Of a DNA stretch of 45,715 bases, positions 642 to 45,336 are shown piece by piece. Position 1 is the first letter of the stretch. The number at the start of each line of letters is the position of its first letter. Below the pieces are notes generated by a model. That model did no database searches. It was not told where the DNA came from and saw only the letters and a program-made list of their open reading frames with translations. Source of the DNA: a virus (lineage: Duplodnaviria; Caudoviricetes); the IMG/VR virus record IMGVR_UViG_3300036987_000023, positions 1 through 45,715 of that record; one strand, written 5' to 3'. The position numbers and the translations under genes were made by a program.

Positions 642-3041
642 ATGAAAAAGTATCTTGTATTTTTAGTATTATTGATAGTGATGGTTTTCCCTGTATCTGT
701 ATCTGCCGCTGGGTATTGTGGTGCATGGGGGATCAGCGGGACTAATCCATGGACGGTAACGTCTGATGCCGGTGGTACACCCAGTGCCGCACATACAGAC
801 GTACAAGCCTGTATTAGCAATGCGACAGTAACCGCCGGAAGCACCCTGAACATAACATACGCAGGTGGAGTTACATGGCCCGGATATGCTACATACATAC
901 CTGCCGCGAAACCGTTGTCTTTGATCGGCCCCGGCGCGTCAGTTTTAACAATAACAGCAACCGGCAACTGGGTTATAGAAACCGGAGCGCATACAGGCGC
1001 GGGTGGTGCGGCAGGGACAAGGGTCAGCGGCTTTAAATTCTTAAGTGCTCTAGATCAAAAACGCCAGATGATTATGTTTCGCGGAAAGAATAACCGCGTC
1101 GATCATTGCGTTTACGAGAGCATAATATCCACCAGCACGACAGGTACGCCGAATTTTGTCGGATTCTGGGGCGGGACTGGTGTGTCCGCGTCTGGCGTTG
1201 CGGATAATAATATTGTAATTAACGGCGGCATAACACAGGGCGGTCTTGGCGACTATGCTACCCAGCGAAATGTTTGGGCAGCGGATATCGTGCTAGGTGA
1301 TGAAAATCAGGTTTTCGTTGAAGATAATTATTTTTATTCGTCAACCGGAACCAGTGTAAAACAGGTATTGGATGCAACCAATGCGTCACGGAGTACCTAC
1401 AGGTACAATACTATTTATAACGGTTGGATTAATGTACACAGCATCCAGGATTCCCAATCGCGTGGTGTGCGGTCATCAGAAATATATGGCAACAAATCTC
1501 ACATATCGACCACCAATGAAGGTTACGGGCCGCTTGCTGGTTCCGGACTGATTTATGGAAATGATTTTGTATCTGCAACATATAATTCCAGTATTTCGTT
1601 CGGTAATAACAGGAGTGAGTGGGGGGACGCGGACGATTTCGGCTCTGCGCATAGATGCAACGGCGCATCTTTCTGGGATGGGAATACAGCGATTAACAAT
1701 GGGACAGGGACTCACACAGGCACAACATCATCGACCGTCCTAACAGATAGCACTAAATCGTGGACCACTAACGCCCTCATAGGCATGACCATAACGAATG
1801 AAACAAAGGGCGGCTTGACCGGCACACTGGCAGGGGCGGCTTGTATTATTACAGCGAATACCAGCACCAGCGCAACATGCTCAGCAGGTTTTTTTGATTC
1901 CTCAACGCTAGAAAACACTAATGAATATAAAATATCTGCTGGCTATCCCTGCCGTGATCAGATTGGCATGGGTACTGATGTGTCAACGTGGACAAGTTTT
2001 CCAACAGCTACAACTAAAGCTCCGAGCCAAGTATCTGCACCGGTATATGTATGGCAAAACTTTAATGATGCCTCATCCCTTATTACTGCGGGGGTGTTCT
2101 CTTCGACTTTAGGTGGAGTAATATTAGGTGGGCGTGATTTTCAAAATCATAACAATACGAATTGCGCTGCTGGTGGGGCAGCGTGTACGGCTGGCGTTGG
2201 ATGCGGAACCCTTGCCAATCGTCCAAGCTCTTGCACAACTGGCGTTGGATACTGGGCCACCAACCAAACTAATTGTGCCGATATTACGGGATATGCAGGA
2301 GCTTCGATTTGTGATTATGTTACAAACCCAAGCTGTACACCTGACAGGTCTGCATCAACTACCTATGCTGGCACACTTTACAAATGCACCTCAACCGATA
2401 CATGGGAAGAATACTTTACACCTTACGATTACCCACATCCCCTGCGTGGAGAAGTAGCCCCGCCCGATAGCACAGCCCCGCAAGTGTCATCCGTATCAGT
2501 CAACCCCGCAGGAACCTCCCTGACAATCACTTGCGATGAACCTGTAAACTTTGGCGCGGGTGGTAACGGCGGGTTTGTTCTTGACCCATCGGGCGCGGAC
2601 GTAACCTTGACCTACGCATCCGGCGCAGGAACGGCAAGCCTTGTCTATACTATCTCGCGGCCAATTTTACAGAGCGAAAACCTCACACTGGCCTACACGC
2701 AGCCCACGGCAGGGGTTGAGGACGTATCAGCATTAACCAATGATCTGGCTTCATTCACGGGTCGCAGCGTCGGAAATGGGTCAACATATACCGGCGAAGC
2801 AACGATCAGAACGCTGACACTGACCACAGGCACAGGGGTTTCGGGAATGTCAAACTACCCCACAGGAACCACGTTTGCGGATGGAACGGCGGTAACAGTG
2901 AGCGCCGCCTGCCATAACGGATGGCGAAACGCTGTTTACTCAGGTGACTGCAACGCGACAACGGGGAACGTAGCAATGTCTGCCAATCGGTCATGCTCGG
3001 CTACCTGCTCACAGACTCCCGTTTTAAATTGGGTGCAATAA
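642..3041 (+). CDS. Secreted-type Cys-rich adhesin/receptor-binding-like protein, allele A: beta-helix-like body, SwmB-like domain, InlB B-repeat-like C-terminus
   Basis: Signal peptide MKKYLVFLVLLIVMVFPVSVSA; beta-helix-like strands (RVSGFKF, RVDHCVY, VFVEDNYF, YRYNTIYN); DSTAPQVSSVSV...LTLAYTQP; TFADGTAVTVSA...YSGDC...MSANRSCSAT. Domain names are by-eye recognition. Confidence 0.75.
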   Translation: MKKYLVFLVLLIVMVFPVSVSAAGYCGAWGISGTNPWTVTSDAGGTPSAAHTDVQACISNATVTAGSTLNITYAGGVTWPGYATYIPAAKPLSLIGPGASVLTITATGNWVIETGAHTGAGGAAGTRVSGFKFLSALDQKRQMIMFRGKNNRVDHCVYESIISTSTTGTPNFVGFWGGTGVSASGVADNNIVINGGITQGGLGDYATQRNVWAADIVLGDENQVFVEDNYFYSSTGTSVKQVLDATNASRSTYRYNTIYNGWINVHSIQDSQSRGVRSSEIYGNKSHISTTNEGYGPLAGSGLIYGNDFVSATYNSSISFGNNRSEWGDADDFGSAHRCNGASFWDGNTAINNGTGTHTGTTSSTVLTDSTKSWTTNALIGMTITNETKGGLTGTLAGAACIITANTSTSATCSAGFFDSSTLENTNEYKISAGYPCRDQIGMGTDVSTWTSFPTATTKAPSQVSAPVYVWQNFNDASSLITAGVFSSTLGGVILGGRDFQNHNNTNCAAGGAACTAGVGCGTLANRPSSCTTGVGYWATNQTNCADITGYAGASICDYVTNPSCTPDRSASTTYAGTLYKCTSTDTWEEYFTPYDYPHPLRGEVAPPDSTAPQVSSVSVNPAGTSLTITCDEPVNFGAGGNGGFVLDPSGADVTLTYASGAGTASLVYTISRPILQSENLTLAYTQPTAGVEDVSALTNDLASFTGRSVGNGSTYTGEATIRTLTLTTGTGVSGMSNYPTGTTFADGTAVTVSAACHNGWRNAVYSGDCNATTGNVAMSANRSCSATCSQTPVLNWVQ

Positions 3042-3582: not shown

Positions 3583-3884
3583 GCGAACTATTTGACAAAA
3601 GAGCTAAGTTTACCGGATACGTTGCCGATCTCATTGACTACATGATAAGCGAAGGATATACCCCCCTGCTTGGCAAGGACGGCCTCAAGCACATGAAAAA
3701 CAGCCTGCACTATGAAGGACTCGCTGTAGACATTGACCTCTTTAAAGACGGCAAATACCTCGTTACAACCGAAGATCATAAGCAGTTTGGTGAGTTTTGG
3801 GAAGGACTCGACGATGACTGTGCATGGGGTGGTAGATTCAAGGACGGCAATCACTACAGCATTAAGTATGGTGGGCGAAAATGA
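3579..3884 (+). CDS. Endolysin, M15 family zinc peptidase
   Basis: SLHYEGLAVD (SxHxxGxAxD) and WGGRFKDGNHYS motifs. Confidence 0.9.
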   Translation: MSELFDKRAKFTGYVADLIDYMISEGYTPLLGKDGLKHMKNSLHYEGLAVDIDLFKDGKYLVTTEDHKQFGEFWEGLDDDCAWGGRFKDGNHYSIKYGGRK

Positions 3885-4798: not shown

Positions 4799-4983
4799 TC
4801 CTTCGCCTCCGCAGCTTTGCAGACGGCCTCACGCCAATAAGCTTTTTCTGCTCTGTCAAAATGCAGGTATCTACCAGTCATCAGGCATAAATTATCATTT
4901 CGACCTCCTCGTAGCTTGCAATACCCGCAATGCCCACCGTCGTCTGATACTTCAATCTTAACCTGTATCACCCTTTCTTGCAT
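4795..4983 (-). CDS. Small Cys-rich hypothetical protein (MQERVIQV...)
   Basis: GGAGG RBS before the ATG at 4983; CGYC motif. Confidence 0.65.
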   Translation of the reverse strand: MQERVIQVKIEVSDDGGHCGYCKLRGGRNDNLCLMTGRYLHFDRAEKAYWREAVCKAAEAKE

Positions 4984-5435
4984 ACGACCTCCTGATGGTA
5001 AGCGCGCAAAACAGAAACACAATCTTCACACGTCCCTGCCTCATAGGGACAATGGTACTCCATCTTCTCCATCGCCTCGACCGCCCTCTGCCACTTTGCG
5101 ACCTGCTCAGTCAAAACGCTAATCGCTTGTCTTACAACATCTTCCAACCTACCATTTTTATAGTCGTAGGCAGGAGAACATTGAGCGCACTGCAATTCAC
5201 CATCATCTCCATAAAGCCCTCTATGTCCGTGACCCACCCATAGCAACTTACGAATTGTCAGAACCTCTGCTTTCAGCCGGTCAATCTCGGCTTGCTGGGC
5301 ATCAATGCAATCCGCAGCTACCTGCATCTGATCATACGGTGCGCCATCGCAACCGCCTTGTCCTGCTAAACAGCGCAATACTGATTGAATAGGTTCTTCA
5401 CTGTTGTTGATACTTAATGGATTGACGATCTTCAT
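4968..5435 (-). CDS. Hypothetical early protein
   Basis: 155-aa ORF with AAGGAGGG RBS; coiled-coil and Cys motifs. Confidence 0.7.
   Translation of the reverse strand: MKIVNPLSINNSEEPIQSVLRCLAGQGGCDGAPYDQMQVAADCIDAQQAEIDRLKAEVLTIRKLLWVGHGHRGLYGDDGELQCAQCSPAYDYKNGRLEDVVRQAISVLTEQVAKWQRAVEAMEKMEYHCPYEAGTCEDCVSVLRAYHQEVVCKKG
4973..5004. repeat. 32-nt gene-junction repeat, copy 1
   Basis: ctttcttgcatacgacctcctgatggtaagcg, 30/32 identical to 6251..6282. Confidence 0.9.
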
Positions 5436-5514
5436 TTTCCCTCCTTGACTTTTCGGCTAAAGTTCGTAAAAAGTCGATCTGTATAACATAGCACTAACTA
5501 TGTTCTTTTCCGAC

Positions 5515-5838
5515 CTATCTGTCGGATCTACGCATTTCGTAGACATTAAAATTATGCCTATCATGCTTTTTACCTAGTTTATCAGCCAATGGCCCATATA
5601 TATGCCCATAACAACCATTCCCAGGAGGCGGTGCAAATATACCTAGTTTCCCCGGGGAATAGTTTGCAAGCCAGTAGCCTCTCCGAAGATAATCATTTAA
5701 TCTTTCCTCTGTAAGTTCCACCCCAAAAAGGAAAATACCTCCTCTTTTAACTCTTTCTTCATGTGATATGCAATCTTTTGCATTATCAAAAGTCTTGCCA
5801 TCAGCGGAAATATATTCTTTTGTTATTTTTTCTTCCAT
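5515..5838 (-). CDS. Hypothetical cassette-type protein
   Basis: 107 aa, GGAGG RBS, start lies just inside attC site 1. Confidence 0.75.
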   Translation of the reverse strand: MEEKITKEYISADGKTFDNAKDCISHEERVKRGGIFLFGVELTEERLNDYLRRGYWLANYSPGKLGIFAPPPGNGCYGHIYGPLADKLGKKHDRHNFNVYEMRRSDR

Positions 5839-5861
5839 GTTATTAAACCCTCCACAAAATC

Positions 5862-5922
5862 AGACAACAAGAGCATTCAGCCGATCGTCGCTCCGCTCCT
5901 CCCGGTGAGCTTTGCGTTATGC
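5862..5922 (+). repeat. attC-like site 1 (partly degenerate)
   Basis: AGACAAC-aagag-CATTCAGC...GGTGAGC-tttgc-GTTATGC; right part 35/39 identical to site 6; L boxes pair poorly. Confidence 0.75.
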
Positions 5923-6261
5923 AGATAATGAATTTTCACTATCCTGCTGTCTGCTCCAACACCCACACGGATGCTGGAAATATCCACGCTGCTGCTCGTA
6001 AGTAAAGAGAGTAGCTTTTGTTAAGTCGGGCGGTTCTGTCATAAACCGTTCACATCCATCATGTCCTATTCCATGAGGAATACATTTAGCCATTCCACAA
6101 AAACATCGGTGATCATGGTTTATTCCATTTTTGAGTTTGCCTGCTATTTCTTCAATCAATTTCTGATTGATTGGCGCAACCTCACATTTCTTATCATACG
6201 GGTGATGCTTATGACATAGAGGACAAAAAATAATATTCGCTATTACGTCTCTTTCTTGCAT
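5917..6261 (-). CDS. Cys/His-rich hypothetical cassette protein
   Basis: CPLCHKHH, HRCFC, HPCGC; TAA stop overlaps GTTA of site 1. Confidence 0.75.
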   Translation of the reverse strand: MQERDVIANIIFCPLCHKHHPYDKKCEVAPINQKLIEEIAGKLKNGINHDHRCFCGMAKCIPHGIGHDGCERFMTEPPDLTKATLFTYEQQRGYFQHPCGCWSRQQDSENSLSA

Positions 6262-6476
6262 ACGGCCTCCTGCTGGTAAGCGTGGTCAATCGCTTCACGA
6301 ATACTTTTTTTCCATTCCTTCTTTTTGATAAAAAAGGCTGTGTCAATATCACCAGGGAATTTTTTGGGAATGCTTTGCATCCCAAATGTTGCAACTACCC
6401 AGTGACTATGGTCATCAGAGACTAAAGCCGAGCCATGCTGTTTTTCCAACCAATCAATTCTTTTTTTGTCGTTCAT
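6243..6476 (-). CDS. Hypothetical phage protein (MNDKKRIDWLEKQ...SIREAID)
   Basis: GGAGGA RBS at 6481..6486. The longer ORF-track start reads through an attC site and was not used. Confidence 0.75.
   Translation of the reverse strand: MNDKKRIDWLEKQHGSALVSDDHSHWVVATFGMQSIPKKFPGDIDTAFFIKKKEWKKSIREAIDHAYQQEAVCKKET
6251..6282. repeat. 32-nt gene-junction repeat, copy 2
   Basis: ctttcttgcatacggcctcctgctggtaagcg. Confidence 0.9.
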
Positions 6477-6496
6477 TATGTCCTCCGTTAATAATT

Positions 6497-6552
6497 GCCC
6501 AACAAGGGCAATCCAGCCGAGCGCTACGCTCCGGCTGATTTTTTCGTTGGAT
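6497..6552 (+). repeat. attC-like site 2
   Basis: GCCCAAC-aagggc-AATCCAGC...GCTGATT-ttttc-GTTGGAT; left L box equals the reverse complement of the right one plus one extra C. Confidence 0.88.
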
Positions 6553-6556
6553 TCGG

Positions 6557-6892
6557 CTACCAACTTACGGATTCTAATTTTACAAAGTCAGTAATTAAGA
6601 TTGGCTCTTTTTCATTTACAGCCACTGTTGTTTTATCGAGGTCTACTGTTATGATTTGTCTATCTCCGTCATGGACTTTTTGTGTGATTCCATATCCAGT
6701 TAAATCGTTCTCGTGCCCGCGAACCATGTCGCAAAATATTATGCGCGTGAGATATTGGAAGTCATCAATCCTGTCGGCTCCTCGTTTTAACGCCGCTTGT
6801 AAAACGCTCGGCAGTGCGTACCCATTCCAGTGTGTGTATAAACAGACTTGTTCATCCGATTCCTTTACTACTACGTTTGCTCTGTCTCCCAT
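6557..6892 (-). CDS. Hypothetical cassette protein (MGDRAN...LYTHWNG)
   Basis: AAGGAG RBS; fills cassette 6547..6983. Confidence 0.85.
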   Translation of the reverse strand: MGDRANVVVKESDEQVCLYTHWNGYALPSVLQAALKRGADRIDDFQYLTRIIFCDMVRGHENDLTGYGITQKVHDGDRQIITVDLDKTTVAVNEKEPILITDFVKLESVSW

Positions 6893-6925
6893 AGTAATCT
6901 CCTTAATTTATTTGTTTAAAAAAAA

Positions 6926-6989
6926 ATCCAACAAATCCATGCAGCCGACTCGCTCGCGTTGCTCGCTCACGCTGATGTCTGCGTTGGGC
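6926..6989 (+). repeat. attC-like site 3
   Basis: ATCCAAC-aaatc-CATGCAGC...GCTGATG-tctgc-GTTGGGC; extra base at position 4 of the left L box. Confidence 0.9.
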
Positions 6990-7205
6990 CTATATATTCC
7001 CGGCCACAATGTCATACGATGAACTGAATCCATCCGCGAGCGCACAAAATTCCATCGCGCGAATTTTATCGGTTTCATCATTCGTCCGAATAAAACTTAG
7101 GGCGTATTCGCCAGCTTTTTTTAAAGCATCGTTTTTCTTCTCCACCAAGATACGAAGAATCTTCCCTTTCGGTGTTTCAACATTGAGAGTAGTGTTGGTT
7201 TTCAT
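6990..7205 (-). CDS. Hypothetical cassette protein
   Basis: 71 aa, AAAGGA RBS, fills cassette 6984..7284. Confidence 0.75.
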   Translation of the reverse strand: MKTNTTLNVETPKGKILRILVEKKNDALKKAGEYALSFIRTNDETDKIRAMEFCALADGFSSSYDIVAGNI

Positions 7206-7235
7206 TTTAAATCCTTTCCGCGCAGCAAATAGATC

Positions 7236-7290
7236 GCCAAACCAGGCAATCCAGCCGAGCGCTACGCTCCGGCTGATTTTTTCGTTATAT
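7236..7290 (+). repeat. attC-like site 4
   Basis: GCCAAAC-caggc-AATCCAGC...GCTGATT-ttttc-GTTATAT; 42 nt identical to site 2. Confidence 0.9.
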
Positions 7291-7512
7291 TTTCACCAAA
7301 TTTGAAAATCTGGCATCCTTAAAAAAATCATCAACCGTTTTACACGGGAAAAACCAACGCGGCTTGCCACGCTTTTTTAAATAAGTGAACGAAACGCCCG
7401 GCAAGGCTCCGTCATATTCGGGATGTCCTGGAATTAAAACAGCATTGATTTTCACGGAAGGCGTTTTTTCATAGCCATTATATAATAATTTATCTCCGGC
7501 ATTTATTTCCAT
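7285..7512 (-). CDS. Hypothetical cassette protein
   Basis: 75 aa, AAAGGA RBS, stop overlaps GTTA of site 4. Confidence 0.8.
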   Translation of the reverse strand: MEINAGDKLLYNGYEKTPSVKINAVLIPGHPEYDGALPGVSFTYLKKRGKPRWFFPCKTVDDFFKDARFSNLVKI

Positions 7513-7535
7513 TTACTTAGTCCTTTCAAAACAAA

Positions 7536-7600
7536 ATATAACCTGTCGTTCCAGTCGATCACTACGCTTCGCTCCGTTCCGCCTGAGCTTGGCGTTAGCA
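7536..7600 (+). repeat. attC-like site 5
   Basis: ATATAAC-ctgtc-GTTCCAGT...CCTGAGC-ttggc-GTTAGCA. Confidence 0.88.
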
Positions 7601-7915
7601 CCAATACAGTGCAACTTTGCACCTATCATCAAGTTCTTTGACATAAGCACCTGTTGGCCCTGTGATTCCAACCGTCTTTAAATCCTTCGCCAGAACAAAG
7701 ACAACTCGTTCACCGTATGGATTTTCTATGGTCTTTCCATAGTGCGTATCTTCATATTTATCGTCTCGGCTTACGTACGAGGTAAAATTATCATCAACTT
7801 CCATAGCCGGAAGTGCTCTTATGGCATCGTGAAGGTCGTAATCTCTATTAACCTGCAAAACAGTGTGAGAGAAAAAACTTGCATCGTAAGGTAATAATAT
7901 TAAATCAACTCCCAT
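7595..7915 (-). CDS. Hypothetical cassette protein (MGVDLILLP...VALYWC)
   Basis: AAGGAG RBS, stop overlaps GTTA of site 5. Confidence 0.85.
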   Translation of the reverse strand: MGVDLILLPYDASFFSHTVLQVNRDYDLHDAIRALPAMEVDDNFTSYVSRDDKYEDTHYGKTIENPYGERVVFVLAKDLKTVGITGPTGAYVKELDDRCKVALYWC

Positions 7916-7941
7916 TTTACTTTCTCCTTTTTAAAAAAAAG

Positions 7942-8002
7942 TGCTAACAAATCGCTGCACCCGATCGTCGCTGCGCTCCTCCGCGTGAGCTTTTCGTTAC
8001 TT
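7942..8002 (+). repeat. attC-like site 6
   Basis: TGCTAAC-aaatc-GCTGCACC...CGTGAGC-ttttc-GTTACTT. Confidence 0.88.
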
Positions 8003-8584
8003 AATCCGACTGAATTCAATCACCCACACAAACGGGTTTGACCCCCACGGATATTTCTTGCCGTTGATTGACTCCCACAAATTAGAAAACGCTGCTTTGG
8101 CTGGTGTACCGCCCCATTTGTCAATGTATGGGCGTTTTTTATCAACTAATTCGTGGACGCCTTCCTTCCAGGCGTCATCTTCCGTTATCTCCTGCAACCT
8201 CTCAACTCTGACGCCTGTGACTTCCAGCGTTATCCTTGAGAAACGGCGAAACATGTGGATTGATGGATGCCATCGAGCGCCGGTGTGCTTCGGCAGGGGC
8301 GTACCGGATGCTTTATATATGATTGTTCCGTAATCTTCGCCACCAGCCCACGTCTCCCGCACCCATAGGTGATCGCCGGGTGTTCCGTAAGGACAATGTT
8401 TGACCATTTCCTTAGATAAATATGGCCGCAATCCTGCAATATGTTTCCATACCCATGTTTTGGCATCGCCGTGCGGATCAAACAAATATGGCTGGATTTT
8501 CACAATCCTCCGCGTCATCGTCTTGCGTCCGGCCAGTATCGCCTGAACCATCGGCGTGCTGAATAATATCGGTTTCTCGTTCAT
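7997..8584 (-). CDS. Conserved phage protein, ASCH/PUA-like
   Basis: MNEKPILFSTPMVQAILAGRKTMTRR...GDHLWVRETW...PSIHM...NPFVWVIEF family signature. Confidence 0.85.
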   Translation of the reverse strand: MNEKPILFSTPMVQAILAGRKTMTRRIVKIQPYLFDPHGDAKTWVWKHIAGLRPYLSKEMVKHCPYGTPGDHLWVRETWAGGEDYGTIIYKASGTPLPKHTGARWHPSIHMFRRFSRITLEVTGVRVERLQEITEDDAWKEGVHELVDKKRPYIDKWGGTPAKAAFSNLWESINGKKYPWGSNPFVWVIEFSRIK

Positions 8585-8755: not shown

Positions 8756-9433
8756 CTAAACCCGCTTAGAGTATGCGCGGACGCCGGGGATATTCAGCGT
8801 TCCTTTCAGGGCTACGGCCATGCGGTTCAGGGCAACCATGTTGCCGGTGACGCACTCGGTTGACGCTTTCCCGGTAGCTACGGCCATGCACAAGGCTTTA
8901 ATATCCGTCACTTCGGCGGCCCACACTTCGCGGTAAACCGGCCCACCTGCCATCTTCGGGACGGCTTTCGGCACGACGATAGGAGCGACATAGACAGGCG
9001 CTTCAATAATAGCTTCGGCCATTTCTGTGTCGCCCGATTGCTCTGCGTTAACTGCTGCCGCTAACTGGCGTTCTTTTTCTTCTTCTTCGGCAATCTTCCT
9101 GAGCCGGTCTTCCTCGGCTTTTCTGATAGCTTCCTGGGCGGCCTGCCAATCAGACATAAGCTGCTTGACCTTCCGCGCGGCGGCGTCGAGAGGACTATAA
9201 TATTTCGCCTTATCAGCGAGTGCATCCTTATGCCCTTCGTGCCAACGCTTGATATTTTTATCAAAGGCGGCGTCAACTTCTGCCTTCATCGCCTGTATTG
9301 ATTTCCAGATGAATCCGGCCTTAGTGTATGTGTCGGCATCAACGACCATGACGGCGTTTGCCTGATCAACAATACTCAAAGATCGGGCCGCCACTTCATC
9401 GGTTTCTACCAACTGCAACGCTACTTCATTCAT
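8756..9433 (-). CDS. Coiled-coil protein of the recombination module (Gam/Gp157-like ending)
   Basis: Long charged helix and C-terminal IPGVRAY; lies next to the exonuclease. Confidence 0.6.
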   Translation of the reverse strand: MNEVALQLVETDEVAARSLSIVDQANAVMVVDADTYTKAGFIWKSIQAMKAEVDAAFDKNIKRWHEGHKDALADKAKYYSPLDAAARKVKQLMSDWQAAQEAIRKAEEDRLRKIAEEEEKERQLAAAVNAEQSGDTEMAEAIIEAPVYVAPIVVPKAVPKMAGGPVYREVWAAEVTDIKALCMAVATGKASTECVTGNMVALNRMAVALKGTLNIPGVRAYSKRV

Positions 9434-9438
9434 GATAT

Positions 9439-10008
9439 TTATCTCCTTTTAAGATTATTGTTCTTCCAGTGGTGAACCGCTACGGCGGCCAACCACACGT
9501 TAAAGTCATTCTGATCCTGAAACGGGACCAGCTTATATTTTCCATCGGCGCTCAGTTCGAGCGCATACCGCCGGCAGACTGTCGGCTTTGGGAAACATCC
9601 GATAATGTCCGGCGTTCCGGCGTAATGGTGCGTGGTGTTAACGCCGGGGGTTTCGGAGCGTTCAACCTTAAAGCCGCTTTCGGTCATGAATTTTCTGAAC
9701 GCTGACAGATAGGGCCTGATTTCATCGTCAAGGCTGTCTTCGTCAAGTTCCCCGGCGAGATCGTACTTGATGGCCGTGTGAACGTGGCTACCCTTATCCC
9801 TTGCCCATTCTGTGAACCACGTTGAATCCACGAAATTTTCTTCCTGTAAAATCTGCGTGACTGATTTTAGGTCTTTGCCCTGCCATGTATAAACGTGACG
9901 TTCAGCATCAAACGTAACATTAAAATCGTTTAACAGGGAATAAGCTGCGGTCTGTAGAGCCGCCGCCGGGGTTGCTTTCCCCGTTTTAAAATCAATCACT
10001 GCGGTCAT
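9439..10008 (-). CDS. PD-(D/E)XK exonuclease-like protein with permuted motif order
   Basis: VIDFKTG...LQTAAY, HVYT...SVTQIL, GSHVH, YAGTPD, RRYALEL..GKYKL. Confidence 0.8.
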   Translation of the reverse strand: MTAVIDFKTGKATPAAALQTAAYSLLNDFNVTFDAERHVYTWQGKDLKSVTQILQEENFVDSTWFTEWARDKGSHVHTAIKYDLAGELDEDSLDDEIRPYLSAFRKFMTESGFKVERSETPGVNTTHHYAGTPDIIGCFPKPTVCRRYALELSADGKYKLVPFQDQNDFNVWLAAVAVHHWKNNNLKRR

Positions 10009-10009
10009 T

Positions 10010-10894
10010 TCAGCCTTCTTCTCCGGGGGTTCGTTCTGCAATAACCACAATTGTCTTCAGGTCGTTGCCATACTGGTTTTTCTCGAACGTAATGTCGGCG
10101 GGTTTGCCGATGGATGCTGTGGCAAGTTCGGCCAGCTTCTTATCAAACGTCTTATAGTCGCCGCCTTCTTCGGCATGGATATGGTAAAGGGGGCTTTTCA
10201 TTGCGGCGCCGGCCTGTGTCTTTGTTTGTTCAACCACTCCCTTGATCGTGATGGCTGCGGTGCTTGAGCCAGTAGTGGCCGTGTCAGATTTTTTCTGCGG
10301 TTCCTTAACCGGCGCTTTATCGTTCTTCTTGTACTCAACCTTACCGCATTGGTCTTGTGTTATCCCTGCGTATTCGGAAAGGTCAGCCCATGCAAGGTTG
10401 CGGATTCCCAAAAGGCGGGTGATACCGTTTCCGAGAAGGTTGGTCAAGGCGGCCATTTTCACGTCGCGCTTGTTGTCACGGTCACCTACTGCTTTCGCCG
10501 TTTTCACGTCATTGACATACTCATTCTGATTAAAAAACTTATCCTTTGATGACCGGCTCCCCTCGACTTCGATTGAACGACCGCCCATAGAAAACCGACC
10601 CTGATAAGTAAATGTATAATGCCCGTCTGCGGTTTCTTCATAGATCGGCTCCGGGGTGAGGAAAGACCACGACACATTGAAAAGGTTTGCTATCTTTTCT
10701 GCTCCCGATACCATGAGGTAAGGCTTTCCGCCTTGATCCGTCCAGTCCCCACCGTTCGTTACTTTCAAGGCAAGCTGTTTGATCTTCACTACTGCGTCAA
10801 TCCTCGCCTCTGCCTGCCTTGCTATGGCGATTAGGGTGTCATCTGCCAGGGCGTTTTGATCCCTTGTTGAAACTTCATAAACTTGATTTTCCAT
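10010..10894 (-). CDS. Putative single-strand annealing/recombination protein
   Basis: KPYLMVSGAEKIANLF motif, position beside the exonuclease, possible C-terminal OB-like domain. Function is inferred. Confidence 0.55.
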   Translation of the reverse strand: MENQVYEVSTRDQNALADDTLIAIARQAEARIDAVVKIKQLALKVTNGGDWTDQGGKPYLMVSGAEKIANLFNVSWSFLTPEPIYEETADGHYTFTYQGRFSMGGRSIEVEGSRSSKDKFFNQNEYVNDVKTAKAVGDRDNKRDVKMAALTNLLGNGITRLLGIRNLAWADLSEYAGITQDQCGKVEYKKNDKAPVKEPQKKSDTATTGSSTAAITIKGVVEQTKTQAGAAMKSPLYHIHAEEGGDYKTFDKKLAELATASIGKPADITFEKNQYGNDLKTIVVIAERTPGEEG

Positions 10895-11802: not shown

Positions 11803-12411
11803 CTATGCCGCTATCTCCTGCTGCTTCTTCGACCAATACTTTTCCCTTAGTCTTTTTAATATTTGATCCCTATTTAAGGCGTATCGTGCTCTACGAACTG
11901 ACTTCCCTTTTTCACTTCGAGAATATTTGTTATTATTTTCGTTTTTTCTTTCTCTGTGGCCTCTGTTCCATTCTAGGGCATCGATTCTGTAGCATATTGG
12001 ACAATGACGCTTTGCGCTGTTGTTGTCTCGCCTATGCTCCTGAATAGGTTGCAATACATGCCCACGTTTACAAAATAATTTCCTAGCGTTCTGTGCCGGA
12101 GAACTTTCCCCACGTAATGCGTTTTCTGCTCGAGTGACAACTTCCATATGTGTTGGGTTGATACATTTTCTGTTTTTGCAAAGGTGATCGATTGTCAAAT
12201 TTTCAGGTATTACTCCGATAAAAACAGCAAATGATAATCTGTGTCCATAATACTGGTGATCCATAACGCTTATTACTGAATAGCATTTGTCTGTAATGTG
12301 CCCTTGCCAATTCCAACACTGACTGTCATCAATAAAAATTCTTTTTGATATTACATCAAAAGCATACGTTTTTACGTATTCCGGCAATGGTTCGCTAAGG
12401 TTATATTTCAC
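11803..12411 (-). CDS. HNH endonuclease (free-standing homing type)
   Basis: CWNWQG...HRLSF...IDHLCKNRKCINPTHMEVVTRAEN...CKRGH. Confidence 0.9.
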   Translation of the reverse strand: MKYNLSEPLPEYVKTYAFDVISKRIFIDDSQCWNWQGHITDKCYSVISVMDHQYYGHRLSFAVFIGVIPENLTIDHLCKNRKCINPTHMEVVTRAENALRGESSPAQNARKLFCKRGHVLQPIQEHRRDNNSAKRHCPICYRIDALEWNRGHRERKNENNNKYSRSEKGKSVRRARYALNRDQILKRLREKYWSKKQQEIAA

Positions 12412-13215: not shown

Positions 13216-13692
13216 TTAACGAGTAGCCGCTATGGCTGTCATGTCCGCTGGACGCTCAAGTATATTTGGTCTGAGGGCTTCGGGATTGCTGCTATCATTG
13301 GCGGACTGTGCCGCTAATAAACGAAGTCGTGCGTGCTCTTTTTTGTGACAAGACGGACAAAAATCATAAACTTCATAGGGTTTTGAATAGTCTGGATGAT
13401 GCAAGTTTCTTGTCTTTGATTCACAATCACATTTATATAAAATTATAATACGGGCAGGATTTCGGCGTCTCGCATCACTGATTAGGGTTTGAGCTTTATA
13501 TTTTTCAGGGTTATTTGATCTCCAAATATCACGATACTTTTTAATATCCCTGAGGTTTCTATTGGTATCCCAGTTACGAGTTTCGATATTATAGCATTCC
13601 TTACAGCGTTGATGTAATCCGTCCTTCGAACTGGATCTCTTGTTGAACGATGAAGTTGGTTTTTCTATTTTACATCGACTACACGTTTTCAT
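13216..13692 (-). CDS. Zinc-finger/HNH-like endonuclease
   Basis: KTCSRC...CKEC N-terminus and HHPDYSKP...CPSCHKKEH. Confidence 0.75.
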   Translation of the reverse strand: MKTCSRCKIEKPTSSFNKRSSSKDGLHQRCKECYNIETRNWDTNRNLRDIKKYRDIWRSNNPEKYKAQTLISDARRRNPARIIILYKCDCESKTRNLHHPDYSKPYEVYDFCPSCHKKEHARLRLLAAQSANDSSNPEALRPNILERPADMTAIAATR

Positions 13693-13736: not shown

Positions 13737-13766
13737 AGTATAATCCACTATGGACATGTTTGTCAA
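13737..13766 (-). promoter_or_regulatory. Leftward sigma70-type promoter
   Basis: TTGACA (13766..13761), 18-bp spacer, TATACT (13742..13737). Confidence 0.75.
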
Positions 13767-13825
13767 TCTTTATTTTCCGTCTATGGACATTTTCTTTAAA
13801 ATATTTTCATTGACACTGTGGACAC
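13744..13825. promoter_or_regulatory. Three operator-like CT(A/G)TGGACA(T/C) repeats
   Basis: Copies at 13748..13757, 13781..13790 and 13816..13825; two lie inside promoter spacers. Confidence 0.7.
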
Positions 13826-13838
13826 GATAAATTATAAT
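13810..13838 (+). promoter_or_regulatory. Rightward sigma70 consensus promoter
   Basis: TTGACA (13810..13815), 17-bp spacer, TATAAT (13833..13838). Confidence 0.88.
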
Positions 13839-14312: not shown

Positions 14313-14651
14313 ATGCCAACCGACAAGCACGTTCTTGAACTTTTAAGGGCTCGCGTCTGCGAAAATGCAAACGGGACTTGCGAGTTTCCCAGCTGCACGA
14401 TGACTGTTGCAGATCCGCACCACATATTTACCCGAAAAAACAAATCAACTCGATATGACCCGAATAACTGCGTGTGGCTTTGTAATTGCTGCCACCGGTA
14501 TGCGGAACAACATCCTGAAGACTTTCAGGTGATGATGATTAACCTCCGCGGGATTGCGTGGTTCACAGACCTGGTTGTTCGGAAAAATCAGGTCGTGAAG
14601 TTCAACGATTCTTACCGGGCAGAGTGGAAGCAAAGGCTGATGGGGGAATGA
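14313..14651 (+). CDS. NinG/Rap-like HNH nuclease
   Basis: CEFPSC...PHHIFTRKNKSTRYDPNNCVWLCNCCH. Confidence 0.75.
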   Translation: MPTDKHVLELLRARVCENANGTCEFPSCTMTVADPHHIFTRKNKSTRYDPNNCVWLCNCCHRYAEQHPEDFQVMMINLRGIAWFTDLVVRKNQVVKFNDSYRAEWKQRLMGE

Positions 14652-17622: not shown

Positions 17623-17774
17623 CCGTCTGGCCGGAAGCGAAACGGGTAGAAAAGCCCTGTGTTGTGTGTGGAGAGATTATGTTTTGCACACCAACGAGAG
17701 AATTATGTTCAAAATGCCGACGTAAAAAAGAAGTCGCATGGATGAGAAAAAGAGCGAAGGAGAGGAAGAAATGA
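17619..17774 (+). CDS. 51-aa zinc-finger protein (not in the ORF track)
   Basis: CVVC...CSKC; ATGA overlaps at both ends. Confidence 0.65.
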   Translation: MTVWPEAKRVEKPCVVCGEIMFCTPTRELCSKCRRKKEVAWMRKRAKERKK

Positions 17775-18532
17775 GATCAAGAAATATCAAACCAGGGTTC
17801 TATAAAAATGATCTTTTGGCTGAATGTGATCCTCTTGCAAGGATACTTTTTACAGGTTTATGGTGCATGGCGGACAGGGAAGGGCGACTCGAGTACCGTC
17901 CGAAGAAAATCAAAGCCGAGTTACTTCCATACGACACCTGTAATATTGAAAAATTAATTAAGCAATTATCTGATAAACAATTCATAACTATCTATTCCGT
18001 AAATAGTAATAATTACATAGAAATTAACTCCTTCATAAAACACCAAACACCACACATTAAAGAACAGGCCAGCACCATACCAGCACCAGACAAGAATCAG
18101 ACAAGCACAAGTGTAGAATCCCTGATTCCTGATTCCCTTAACCTGATTCCTGATTCCGGATTCACGATTGACGATGTACCGGATAAATCCGGTTGCGCTC
18201 TCTCTGAAAATAAAAATAATAAAAAAACCTACCCGGATGATTTTTTGTGTTTCTGGGAAGCATACCCCAAAAAGTCAGGATCAAAAAAAGCAGCATTTGA
18301 AAACTGGAAAAAGCTCAACGGCAATAAACCCGCCATTGATGTGGTTCTTATCGCTATTGAACAGCAAAAAGAATGGCGACGCAACGCCAGGGATGGCGAT
18401 TTTCGTCCCGAATGGAAAGACCCGGAACGATGGATTAAAAACCGGATGTGGGAGCCTGAATTTACGCATTACACAGAAGAAAGCGAGATTGATAAGTGGT
18501 TAAGAAAAGGGGAATCCAATGTTAAAACATGA
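17771..18532 (+). CDS. Phage replication initiator protein
   Basis: MRSRNIKPGFYKND...GLWCMADREGRL N-domain and FWEAYPKK...KKAAFENWKKL C-domain, joined by a repeat-rich linker. Confidence 0.85.
   Translation: MRSRNIKPGFYKNDLLAECDPLARILFTGLWCMADREGRLEYRPKKIKAELLPYDTCNIEKLIKQLSDKQFITIYSVNSNNYIEINSFIKHQTPHIKEQASTIPAPDKNQTSTSVESLIPDSLNLIPDSGFTIDDVPDKSGCALSENKNNKKTYPDDFLCFWEAYPKKSGSKKAAFENWKKLNGNKPAIDVVLIAIEQQKEWRRNARDGDFRPEWKDPERWIKNRMWEPEFTHYTEESEIDKWLRKGESNVKT
18069..18163 (+). repeat. Iteron-like repeats, probable replication origin inside the initiator gene
   Basis: ccagcacca x2, cagacaag x2, cctgattcctgattcc x2, followed by an A-rich tract near 18207..18227. Confidence 0.65.
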
Positions 18533-43263: not shown

Positions 43264-45336
43264 ATGAAAAAAATACTAGCCTTTATTTTGCTCTTTATCT
43301 TTTGCCCAGTGGTGGCATGGGCTGCCTGTACAAACAACGGTGATGGCACGTTTACCACAGGCGGGAACGAATCATCTGATGTTATGGACTGCATCAACCA
43401 CCCATCGCTTGTCGCTGGCAATACAATCAACGTTATAGCGGGGGATGAGGCAGCTACATGGGCCGCTGGGTCTGTTGTTGTTCCTTCAAATAAGCCGTTA
43501 AAGATCATGGGCCCTGGGAGAGATAACTTAACGATTATTCTTGGTGGCCATTATCCACTACAAATATCAACCGACGGTGCGACGCCCTATATCGGAACGG
43601 TGGAATTACCTGCAACACGGATCAGCGGATTTACCTTTCAAACTCCTACAGACGCAGGGTACGCAGCTATTCTTGCACGGGGGAAGGGCTGGCGGATCGA
43701 CAATTGCCGGTATCATAGCGTCAGAACGACAAATGCACAAACTGCCGCGTTTGTAAATGCTTATTCAATGAATCAGACTGCTGCGTATGTTTCTGTTGGT
43801 CTAATTGATAATAACATTATCATTAACGGGCATATTGATTCCGGAATGCTGGGGTCATTTACAGCCCTCTCAACCCCTTGGGCAGACCCGCTTGATTTGG
43901 GGACAGCAAATTTCGTGTATGTGGAAGACAACGTTTTCAATGCCGTCAACACTAATTATCAAATGTATCTAGATTCAAACGGCAGTGGCAAATATGTGTC
44001 ACGCTACAACACATTCAATGATGGTCGTAACCTTGTTCACAGCCTTCAGGATGATTGGCGTGGTTCGATTAGCTGGGAAATGTATGGGAATATTTTTAAC
44101 GCACTTACGAGCAACGTGGGAATCGCTCCACTTGCTGGAACTGGGGTTGTGTTTAATAACTACATGGCTGGGAGTGGCGGGACGAAAAATATCTCATTTG
44201 ACACAAATCGTTTATGGAAGTCAGTTGGTAGCCATGCTTTGAAATGTGATGGAACATCTGATTACGACGGAAATACAACTGTTACGCCTTCTGCCCCTGG
44301 ATACCCATGCCGCGACCAATTAGGACGAAGCACTGATTCCTTTTTATGGACAAGCGCAAGCGGCTCGTATGCTACTGTTTTCCCCGCACCAGTTCAGGAA
44401 TTAAAGCCTGCCTATCTTTGGAGCAACTACAGCACAACCACTCCCATTGTTCCAAACGTGAGCGTAGAAGCCACAAATTACATTGTAAACAATCGGGATT
44501 ATTACATCCAAAACGCTTCTTTTAACGGGACATCGGGTGTCGGCTGTGGAACGCTTGGTAACCGTCCGGCAACCTGCACAACAGGCGTTGGTTATTGGGC
44601 AACCAATCAATCCTGTTCGGACATGACAGGTATGGTCGGTGCGAACCCATCTACACCAATCGCAGGAACGCTTTATAAATGCACATCAACCAACACGTGG
44701 ACAGAATACTACACACCCTACGATTACCCGCATCCACTGAGGGGTGAGGTAGCCCCGCCTGATAGCACACCTCCGACAGTATCATCGGTATCCGTAAATG
44801 CCGCTGGAACTTCACTGACAATCACTTTTGACGAATCCGTGAACTTCGGCGCAGGCGGAAATGGAGGTTTTGTTCTTGACCCATCGGGTGCGGACGTAAC
44901 CTTGACATACGCATCCGGCGCAGGAACGGCAAGCCTTGTCTATACGATTTCACGGCCAATTTTGCAGAGCGAAACCATGACGCTGGCTTACACACAACCC
45001 ACTGCAGGCGTTGAGGACGTATCAGCATTAACCAATGATCTGGCATCATTTACCGGAAGAAGCGTCGGAAACCAATCAACACAGACCGGCGAAGCGACGA
45101 TCAGGACTTTGACACTGACCACAGGCACAGGGGTTGCCGGAATGTCGAACTACCCCACAGGAATTACGTTTGCAGACGGGACAGCGGTAACGGTATCAGC
45201 CGCTTGTCATAACGGATGGCGCAATGCTGTTTACTCAGGCGATTGTAACGCCTCAACCGGCAACGTAACCATGTCAGCAAATCGGTCGTGTTCGGCTACC
45301 TGCTCGCAGACGCCAACTTTAAACTGGGTGCAATAA
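43264..45336 (+). CDS. Secreted-type Cys-rich adhesin/receptor-binding-like protein, allele B
   Basis: MKKILAFILLFIFCPVVAWA; collinear with 642..3041 and near-identical to it from GTLYKCTST to the end. Confidence 0.78.
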   Translation: MKKILAFILLFIFCPVVAWAACTNNGDGTFTTGGNESSDVMDCINHPSLVAGNTINVIAGDEAATWAAGSVVVPSNKPLKIMGPGRDNLTIILGGHYPLQISTDGATPYIGTVELPATRISGFTFQTPTDAGYAAILARGKGWRIDNCRYHSVRTTNAQTAAFVNAYSMNQTAAYVSVGLIDNNIIINGHIDSGMLGSFTALSTPWADPLDLGTANFVYVEDNVFNAVNTNYQMYLDSNGSGKYVSRYNTFNDGRNLVHSLQDDWRGSISWEMYGNIFNALTSNVGIAPLAGTGVVFNNYMAGSGGTKNISFDTNRLWKSVGSHALKCDGTSDYDGNTTVTPSAPGYPCRDQLGRSTDSFLWTSASGSYATVFPAPVQELKPAYLWSNYSTTTPIVPNVSVEATNYIVNNRDYYIQNASFNGTSGVGCGTLGNRPATCTTGVGYWATNQSCSDMTGMVGANPSTPIAGTLYKCTSTNTWTEYYTPYDYPHPLRGEVAPPDSTPPTVSSVSVNAAGTSLTITFDESVNFGAGGNGGFVLDPSGADVTLTYASGAGTASLVYTISRPILQSETMTLAYTQPTAGVEDVSALTNDLASFTGRSVGNQSTQTGEATIRTLTLTTGTGVAGMSNYPTGITFADGTAVTVSAACHNGWRNAVYSGDCNASTGNVTMSANRSCSATCSQTPTLNWVQ

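Follow-up and report, generated by a model that had tools for sequence, protein, structure and literature searches.

The window analysed here is a stretch of 45,715 nucleotides that makes up the whole of the virus record IMGVR_UViG_3300036987_000023, assigned to the tailed phages (Caudoviricetes), and it carries in its early region an array of six attC recombination sites together with seven small genes. This array is likely an integron devoid of integrase that is run by the integron integrase (IntI) of the bacterial host and that holds a cassette pool of its own, in which the genes are inverted relative to attC. A wider proposal, which we hold with distinctly less confidence and offer as tentative, is that phages of several lineages run such integrase-less integrons on host IntI, build cassettes from their own early genes at the GTTA of stop codons and benefit from the reversed orientation as a mutual firewall, under which neither host defence cassettes taken up by a phage nor phage counter-defence cassettes taken up by a host would be read.

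An attC array with inverted genes

Six attC-like sites are found on the + strand between positions 5862 and 8002, that is within 2.1 kb. Site 1 (5862-5922, +; AAC at 5866, crossover G at 5916) scores 30.0 bits and is degenerate in its L pairing. Site 2 (6497-6552, +; AAC 6501, G 6546) shares an identical hairpin with site 4 (7236-7290, +; AAC 7240, G 7284), and a search of the viral contigs for this exact hairpin gave no match. Sites nearly identical to site 3 (6926-6989, +; AAC 6930, G 6983) were found in the viral loci L002, L003, L027 and L042, and a hairpin nearly identical to that of site 5 (7536-7600, +; AAC 7540, G 7594; 24.9 bits) in L341. In site 6 (7942-8002, +; AAC 7946, G 7996), the GTTA of the R' core is also the stop codon of a resident early gene. 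The sites display the R''/L''/L'/R' architecture of attC, the extrahelical base and the strand skew. With at least two clustered attC sites and no integron integrase nearby, the window is a CALIN (cluster of attC sites lacking an integron integrase).

The array is real and far beyond chance. An attC finder returned no site in 20/20 shuffled versions of the window. With an attC-family profile, the six sites reach 24.9-54.4 bits versus a best score of 8.3 in 1.42 Mb of shuffled DNA, the training set of this profile containing sites 2, 3, 4 and 6, with sites 1 and 5 outside it.

The extra base is position 4 of the left L box, on the + strand, and without it the L boxes pair at 7/7 positions in sites 2-4, 6/7 in site 6, 5/7 in site 5 and 4/7 in site 1. 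In 6/6 sites, the + strand has a negative GC and AT skew and the - strand folds more stably, the same pattern as that of the top and bottom attC strands in the accessible part of a published study (PMC5027507). Taken together, the extra base, the skew and the folding designate + as the attC top strand, in agreement with the first-pass annotation made from the letters alone. As that annotation had also stated, the cassette genes are all on the - strand; they are seven in number and run against the attC top strand and in line with the leftward early operon.

Gene A (5515-5838, -) encodes 107 aa and its C-terminus is 4-9 aa shorter than in its relatives. Genes B1 (5917-6261, -, 114 aa) and B2 (6243-6476, -, 77 aa) belong to the same cassette. 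They are followed on the - strand by C (6557-6892, 111 aa), a member of the widespread phage family phrog_31860, D (6990-7205, 71 aa), for which the homologue search covered hidden Markov model libraries and the fetched loci, E (7285-7512, 75 aa) and F (7595-7915, 106 aa). The right end of the array is the stop of the resident gene (7997-8584, -; phrog_874, weakly ASCH-like), which has no attC on its 5' side and hence is not a cassette. Opening and closing cores match at 7/7 positions in C, E and F and at 6/7 in D. B1 and E have their stop within the GTTA core, and the R' core of cassette F consists of the natural last codon and stop, this codon being conserved across the F family. The claim that four stops (5917, 7285, 7595 and 7997) lie in GTTA was correct as to the coordinates, but the last one is that of the resident gene and not of a cassette. 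In the same way, the ribosome-binding site (RBS) said to lie beside the AAC in each gene was observed in six of the seven, with the ATG 25-38 nt from the AAC, B1 being the exception with a start about 240 nt away. Full-length relatives on the - strand number 3 for A, 85 for C, 23 for E and 58 for F, and a 60% relative of B1 likewise ends in the R' core, in L026/L229; these reading frames are therefore real.

The unit 5916-6546 comprises two genes, B1 and B2, between cores that do not match (GTTATGC versus GCCCAAC). They join at a 32-nt gene junction (6251-6282) carried by the end of B2, which is repeated (94%) at 4973-5004 and has a partial third copy at 4817-4842. This repeated junction couples the end of one gene to the RBS and start of the next, and it may constitute a second shuffling joint, based on homology.

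The seven proteins, for which the first-pass annotation had suggested host-toxic or anti-defence roles, gave no match in Pfam or PADLOC. No viral locus was found among the relatives of gene A, and the search of cultured phages gave a single weak match, in the resident gene only. The folds predicted for C and F are confident (predicted local distance difference test, pLDDT, 95.7 and 90.6), and neither model had a match in the PDB at E<=0.001.

All seven genes face the attI side of the array. The best promoter match for their strand lies 5.7 kb rightward, and none was found in the position of a cassette promoter (Pc) on the attI side. The array itself has no promoter-like site above 9/12 and no terminator-like match on the - strand at any attC. 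The leftward phage promoter expected by the first-pass annotation has its counterpart in a sigma-70-like sequence, TTGACA-18-TATACT (13737-13766, -; 11/12, consensus match only), divergent from a rightward one (13810-13838, +; 12/12). The whole window holds 18 promoter-like sites against 16.1 by chance, and only the divergent pair and one more exceed 9/12.

Orientation and gene pools in phages and bacteria

The same attC family was followed in viral and bacterial loci. Viral loci were retrieved by a generic attC pattern (89) and by the family pattern (30). Bacterial loci, at least 130 in named genomes (about 360 estimated), were represented by the flanks of 80, and are mostly from Syntrophaceae, Smithellaceae and unnamed Deltaproteobacteria. 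When the orientation was called on the longest open reading frame (ORF) between consecutive attC sites, 61 of 93 viral cassettes were inverted, 6 normal, 21 ambiguous and 5 without call, versus 96 normal, 8 inverted, 9 ambiguous and 6 without call among 119 bacterial cassettes. Counted by contig, the inverted to normal ratio was 24:4 in viruses and 3:35 in bacteria (Fisher p=7e-11), mixed and uncalled contigs (8/36 viral, 6/44 bacterial) being left out. A count by cluster, with later loci added, loci sharing DNA grouped and ambiguous calls settled by RBS and geometry, gave 27 inverted, 4 normal and 2 uncalled among 33 viral clusters, and 42 normal, 4 inverted and 3 uncalled among 49 bacterial ones. 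Inversion is thus general among phages with this attC family. The phage-borne cassette class proposed in the first-pass annotation stands in this form (27/33 viral inverted versus 42/49 bacterial normal), but it does not extend to all phage cassettes, since the cultured phage TJE1 has three attC sites with + as top strand and + genes, hence a normal array.

The eight cassettes called inverted in bacterial records trace to L095, whose contig is phage-like and encodes NinG and RNA ligase, to contigs 2.7 kb and 739 bp long, and to one 46-aa frame devoid of RBS. Conversely, the 'normal' viral call in L235 was kept in the counts; this cassette is 98% identical to an inverted cassette of L351, which suggests that the call is probably wrong. 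In ctTUS972 (L413, MW202573), the attC at 3676-3734 has - as its top strand among + genes and is thus inverted, which was apparently not remarked on in the accessible part of the study of Qi et al. (PMC9892861) that includes this phage.

Inverted cassettes mirror the anatomy of normal ones, the stop being in one core and the RBS and start at 20-40 nt from the second core. Among viral cassettes with matching cores, the stop is inside the GTTA core in 25/45, and the distance between start and AAC is mostly 20-40 nt. The gene block on the left is co-oriented with the inverted array in 17/19 callable clusters. The median cassette length is 279 nt in viruses versus 638 nt in bacteria. Two isolated cases were also observed, an inverted gene with its start codon inside the R'' core (CAT in GCATAAC; L350:7543-7806) and a 254-nt inverted cassette duplicated in tandem (L005, oriented 3046 and 3346).

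The two groups of cassettes also differ in their genes. Proteins of viral inverted cassettes matched viral loci only (90/90) and those of bacterial normal cassettes bacterial loci only (68/68), overlapping loci being counted repeatedly in both figures. Among the Atlas clusters for which taxa are recorded, those nearest to genes C and F are viral. In viral loci carrying relatives of F (10) and of C (68), attC of this family was found in 0/78, a search that would miss other attC families. Judged from these matches, the genes of the inverted pool are phage genes, and the relatives of C and F ordinary phage genes without attC of this family. The question raised in the first-pass annotation, whether homologues are phage- or integron-borne, is thereby answered in favour of phage-borne genes and not of normal chromosomal cassettes. 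The inverted array of L242 holds one normal cassette of host type, with matching cores, that is 30% identical to a normal cassette of L060.

Regarding the cargo, 108 proteins from inverted or ambiguous intervals included 15 DNA methyltransferases, 2 Mom-like proteins and 1 Lar-like protein; this set represents 108 of 118 proteins, the 10 from L060, L013 and L010 being left out, and 7 of its members are from bacterial-record contigs. Among host normal cassettes, 10/96 match PADLOC at E<=1e-6, including a type IV restriction enzyme, bSEFIR and HamC.

attI sites, cassette mobility and the probable host

The integrase gene intI was found in seven bacterial loci of this attC family and is divergent from the array in 7/7. 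Two types of attI were distinguished. The first, beside a shorter IntI, ends in TTTTCCRYYTATTACWCTG^TT (5 loci), and the second, beside a longer IntI, ends in GTATATTAATTG^TT or a close variant (2 loci). Among 30 further intI loci, 8 had the second type, and several had the first type or one of its variants. Both host attI types also head viral arrays, at the transcript-distal end. Scanning of the viral contigs for the two types gave 16 + 13 loci at 28 distinct places. In 16/28 of these places an attC follows within 1.1 kb, and the cores match at 6-7/7 positions in 16/16. The first gene behind these 16 viral attI sites is inverted in 12, normal in 2 and ambiguous in 2. In four contigs, the same attI flank precedes different first genes, of 209, 255, 121 and 62 aa. 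The position of attI at the array head in viral loci establishes the polarity without recourse to the extra base. Of note, there are viral contigs with a pair of attI-type sites, 650 nt (L345/L346) and 2185 nt (L331/L333) apart.

No integrase was found among the 61 ORFs of the virus record with PHROGs, and a profile made from the seven host IntI detected none in the whole window. In the genomes of the host order (the order of G001), IntI above the NCBIfam cut-off is present in 44/121. Window sites 2 and 4 are 84-98% identical to DNA of this order, the range being 84-96% for site 2, and the replication gene of the window has a 69-78% match in 5/251 of its genomes. These similarities point to a Syntrophales-type bacterium as the probable host. 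No clear inverted cassette was found beside intI in a host integron. A third IntI clade was also observed in the host order (L363-L368, L372 and L377); it is about 50% identical to the others and has no attC of this family within 1.5 kb.

At the left end of the window array, a palindrome and a weak look-alike of attI type 1 lie together at 5481-5521 (+). The look-alike, TTTTCCGACCTATCTGT at 5505-5521, ranks second genome-wide for one of the three motifs used and is missed by the attI profiles; as a post hoc candidate, it is weak. It lies at the end where gene A lacks a few residues. The palindrome itself (5481-5508, with a 6-nt spacer) resembles a dif-type site. Its reading as attI or dif is not supported, since it was present in 0/352 loci and 0/121 genomes, and the flanks of its 9 matches in metagenomes were unrelated and lacked attC. 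Alignment of this left end with the upstream regions of 13 further intI loci gave nothing. Three more short hairpins are found between 5448 and 5545.

Exchange of cassettes was looked at in non-syntenic pairs of cassette bodies with 98-100% identity. The more similar attC was on the 5' side of the gene in 3/3, with similarities of 0.88 versus 0.46, 0.78 versus 0.71 and 0.96 versus 0.54 for the other attC. Furthermore, a contig of run X11 contains cassette F up to exactly the G at 7594, followed by 47 unlike letters, which indicates that cassette F exists in another context. Joints with sides of 22-40 nt at repeated attC sites are likely DNA of other organisms and were not used.

Explanations, known systems and genomic surroundings

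In the explanation that we favour, host IntI would act in trans and recombine the attC bottom strand, which here is the coding strand. The first attC would have been placed at a GTTA that forms the stop of a resident gene, as seen at the right end of the window array and in several other arrays. New cassettes would then be inserted at the phage attI, in the last part of the early transcript, and be read from the phage early promoter at the opposite end. Because the gene is reversed against its attC, a phage cassette would be unread at a host attI; a host cassette would be antisense in the phage, and two gene pools would be kept apart on one enzyme. In the window phage, attI may have decayed, and loss and reshuffling of cassettes may be the only changes still open to the array.

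Several results weigh against this explanation or a part of it. No clean attI was found in the window. The IntI profile detected no IntI in the viral loci, for which flanks of 3-8 kb were covered, and the host is assigned on sequence similarity. The right gene block is co-oriented in only 14/21 callable inverted clusters. Among five other pairs of cassette bodies, one is syntenic and four (77-90% identity) are uninformative or point the opposite way, flanking attC sites differing on both sides at this level of identity. Another X11 contig diverges 6 nt past the AAC of site 6, after the spacer, so that attC hairpins are also swapped by another route. In eight runs, no rearranged form of the window array could be distinguished from attC of other organisms. 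Finally, TJE1 exemplifies that normal cassettes running with the transcript also occur in phages, and a firewall is therefore not required.

The most serious competitor, to which we give about half the weight of the favoured explanation, keeps the same system but sees the separation of the pools as a by-product, the inversion resulting from a founder effect or from the placement of the attC bottom strand on the lagging-strand template, with more turnover. A leftward fork from the replication gene (17738-18532) would indeed use - as lagging template, if the origin is presumed to lie there as in lambdoid phages, and the normal array of TJE1 fits this idea as well. Bottom strands on the lagging template have also been described to recombine more (PMC5371416, in its accessible part). 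Nevertheless, this alternative by itself leaves unexplained why host-type cassettes are almost lacking from phage arrays, where a single clear case was found. It is rather unlikely that the attC-like repeats are mainly linkers for homologous or slippage recombination by phage genes, as are the stem-loops of T4-like phages, with little part for IntI. Exonuclease and putative annealing genes just upstream of the array (8756-10894), the identity of sites 2 and 4, the mixing of attC halves between contexts and the apparent joining of unit B at a repeated junction speak for it. However, cores match those of their own cassette across the gene, exactly in 3/5 in the window and in 62/93 viral cassettes, and the start of new cassettes falls precisely at the G^TT of attI sites, which are not homologous to attC.

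Less probable still is the action of a phage-encoded or other non-IntI tyrosine recombinase that the window phage would have lost. Weak recombinase-like frames were found near the arrays of L340 and L227. However, the L227 protein, the best viral match of the IntI profile, is a phage integrase of the ordinary kind with an excisionase-like gene as neighbour, and the frame of L340 is a short fragment at a distance of 2.7 kb. The attI sites of the phages, moreover, are copies of those next to IntI of two host clades. We consider it very improbable that the polarity is opposite to the textbook reading and the cassettes normal. Some attC sites are weakly strand-selective (accessible part of PMC5027507) and sites 1 and 5 pair poorly, but in host integrons, where intI is divergent, these same sequences bear ORFs in sense orientation. 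In addition, attI is on the side expected with + as top strand, and skew and folding agree in all six sites. Two further ideas were rejected. Window cassettes that are simply flipped host cassettes do not fit, since recombination of the top strand flips the whole cassette and not the gene against its attC (reasoned from the same part of PMC5027507), and the gene content agrees. A terminator in the top-strand T-tract of attC, which would halt transcription in the sense direction, was dismissed as the main cause of inversion, tails of at least 6 T being found in 19/61 viral inverted versus 53/96 bacterial normal sites; in the accessible part of a review, attC sites are stated not to terminate transcription (PMC8876359).

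Compared with known integrons and CALINs, the inverted and phage-derived pool behind host-type attI sites is new. Literature searches, with most subscription papers outside their coverage, retrieved no paper on arrays of inverted cassettes or on phage arrays that have attI but no integrase. Qi et al. (2023, PMC9892861) described 17 phage CALINs, including TJE1, PH101, P12002L and ctTUS972. These share with the present arrays attC clusters in phages without intI and a methyltransferase cargo, and their sites were recognised by IntI1; in the accessible part of that paper, neither an inversion of ORFs against attC nor an attI in virulent phages is reported. Sedentary chromosomal integrons of the Syntrophales type have the same attC family, two attI types and a tight anatomy with matching cores, whereas the phage side has no intI, no Pc at attI, inverted genes, shorter cassettes and no shared gene families. 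Insertion at attG sites and single attC sites lacking an integron integrase (SALINs), as presented in the available part of a preprint (Loot et al., bioRxiv 10.1101/2022.09.11.507474), also involve IntI in trans, at GWT secondary sites, which recalls the right end of the window array at the GTTA of a resident stop, but the phage arrays are ordered behind true attI sites and their genes are inverted and of phage origin. The reverse (inverted-integrase) integrons of Treponema are, from what is accessible of PMC7691350, likewise an orientation variant of integrons; there it is intI that is turned, co-oriented with the cassettes, whereas the window has no intI and the gene is turned inside the cassette. 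Promoter early stem-loop (PeSL) modules of T4-type phages (accessible part of PMC2839356) also consist of repeated hairpins between small variable early genes and are shuffled as modules. PeSLs are promoter-terminator units, however, and the phage array has attC sites, attI partners and a site-specific crossover point.

Integrons have lately been seen as banks of anti-phage defences (bioRxiv 10.1101/2024.07.02.601686, in its available part). Phages appear to hold a mirror-image pool on integron sites, rich in DNA-modification genes and headed by host attI sequences. If the wider proposal is true, phages would be a place where cassettes can be seen to arise de novo, and inverted arrays a list of counter-defence candidates, with a simple sequence rule, namely attC plus an inverted small gene in a phage. 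The exploitation of host IntI by phages becomes testable, and so does the origin of cassettes from genes, by comparing free and cassetted members of the same phage families, as with F, whose core is its own last codon and stop.

As to the rest of the genome, its assembly agrees with contigs from the probable source run and from four more runs of groundwater or coal samples. In the RNA run X9, six short pieces of the leftward region were found as strandless contigs, which are not evidence of expression. According to PHROGs, applied to the 61 ORFs, terminase, portal, major head and podovirus-type tail genes are on the + strand, the gene at 17738-18532 is a replication initiator, and small genes, exonucleases among them, form a leftward block from about 13.7 kb down to 4.5 kb. 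Three HNH-type endonuclease genes surround the early promoters (11803-12411, 13216-13692 and 14313-14651), one of which also matches a Lar-like profile. In the tail region, two large related proteins of 799 and 690 aa (642-3041 and 43264-45336) share an Ig-like SWM repeat domain.

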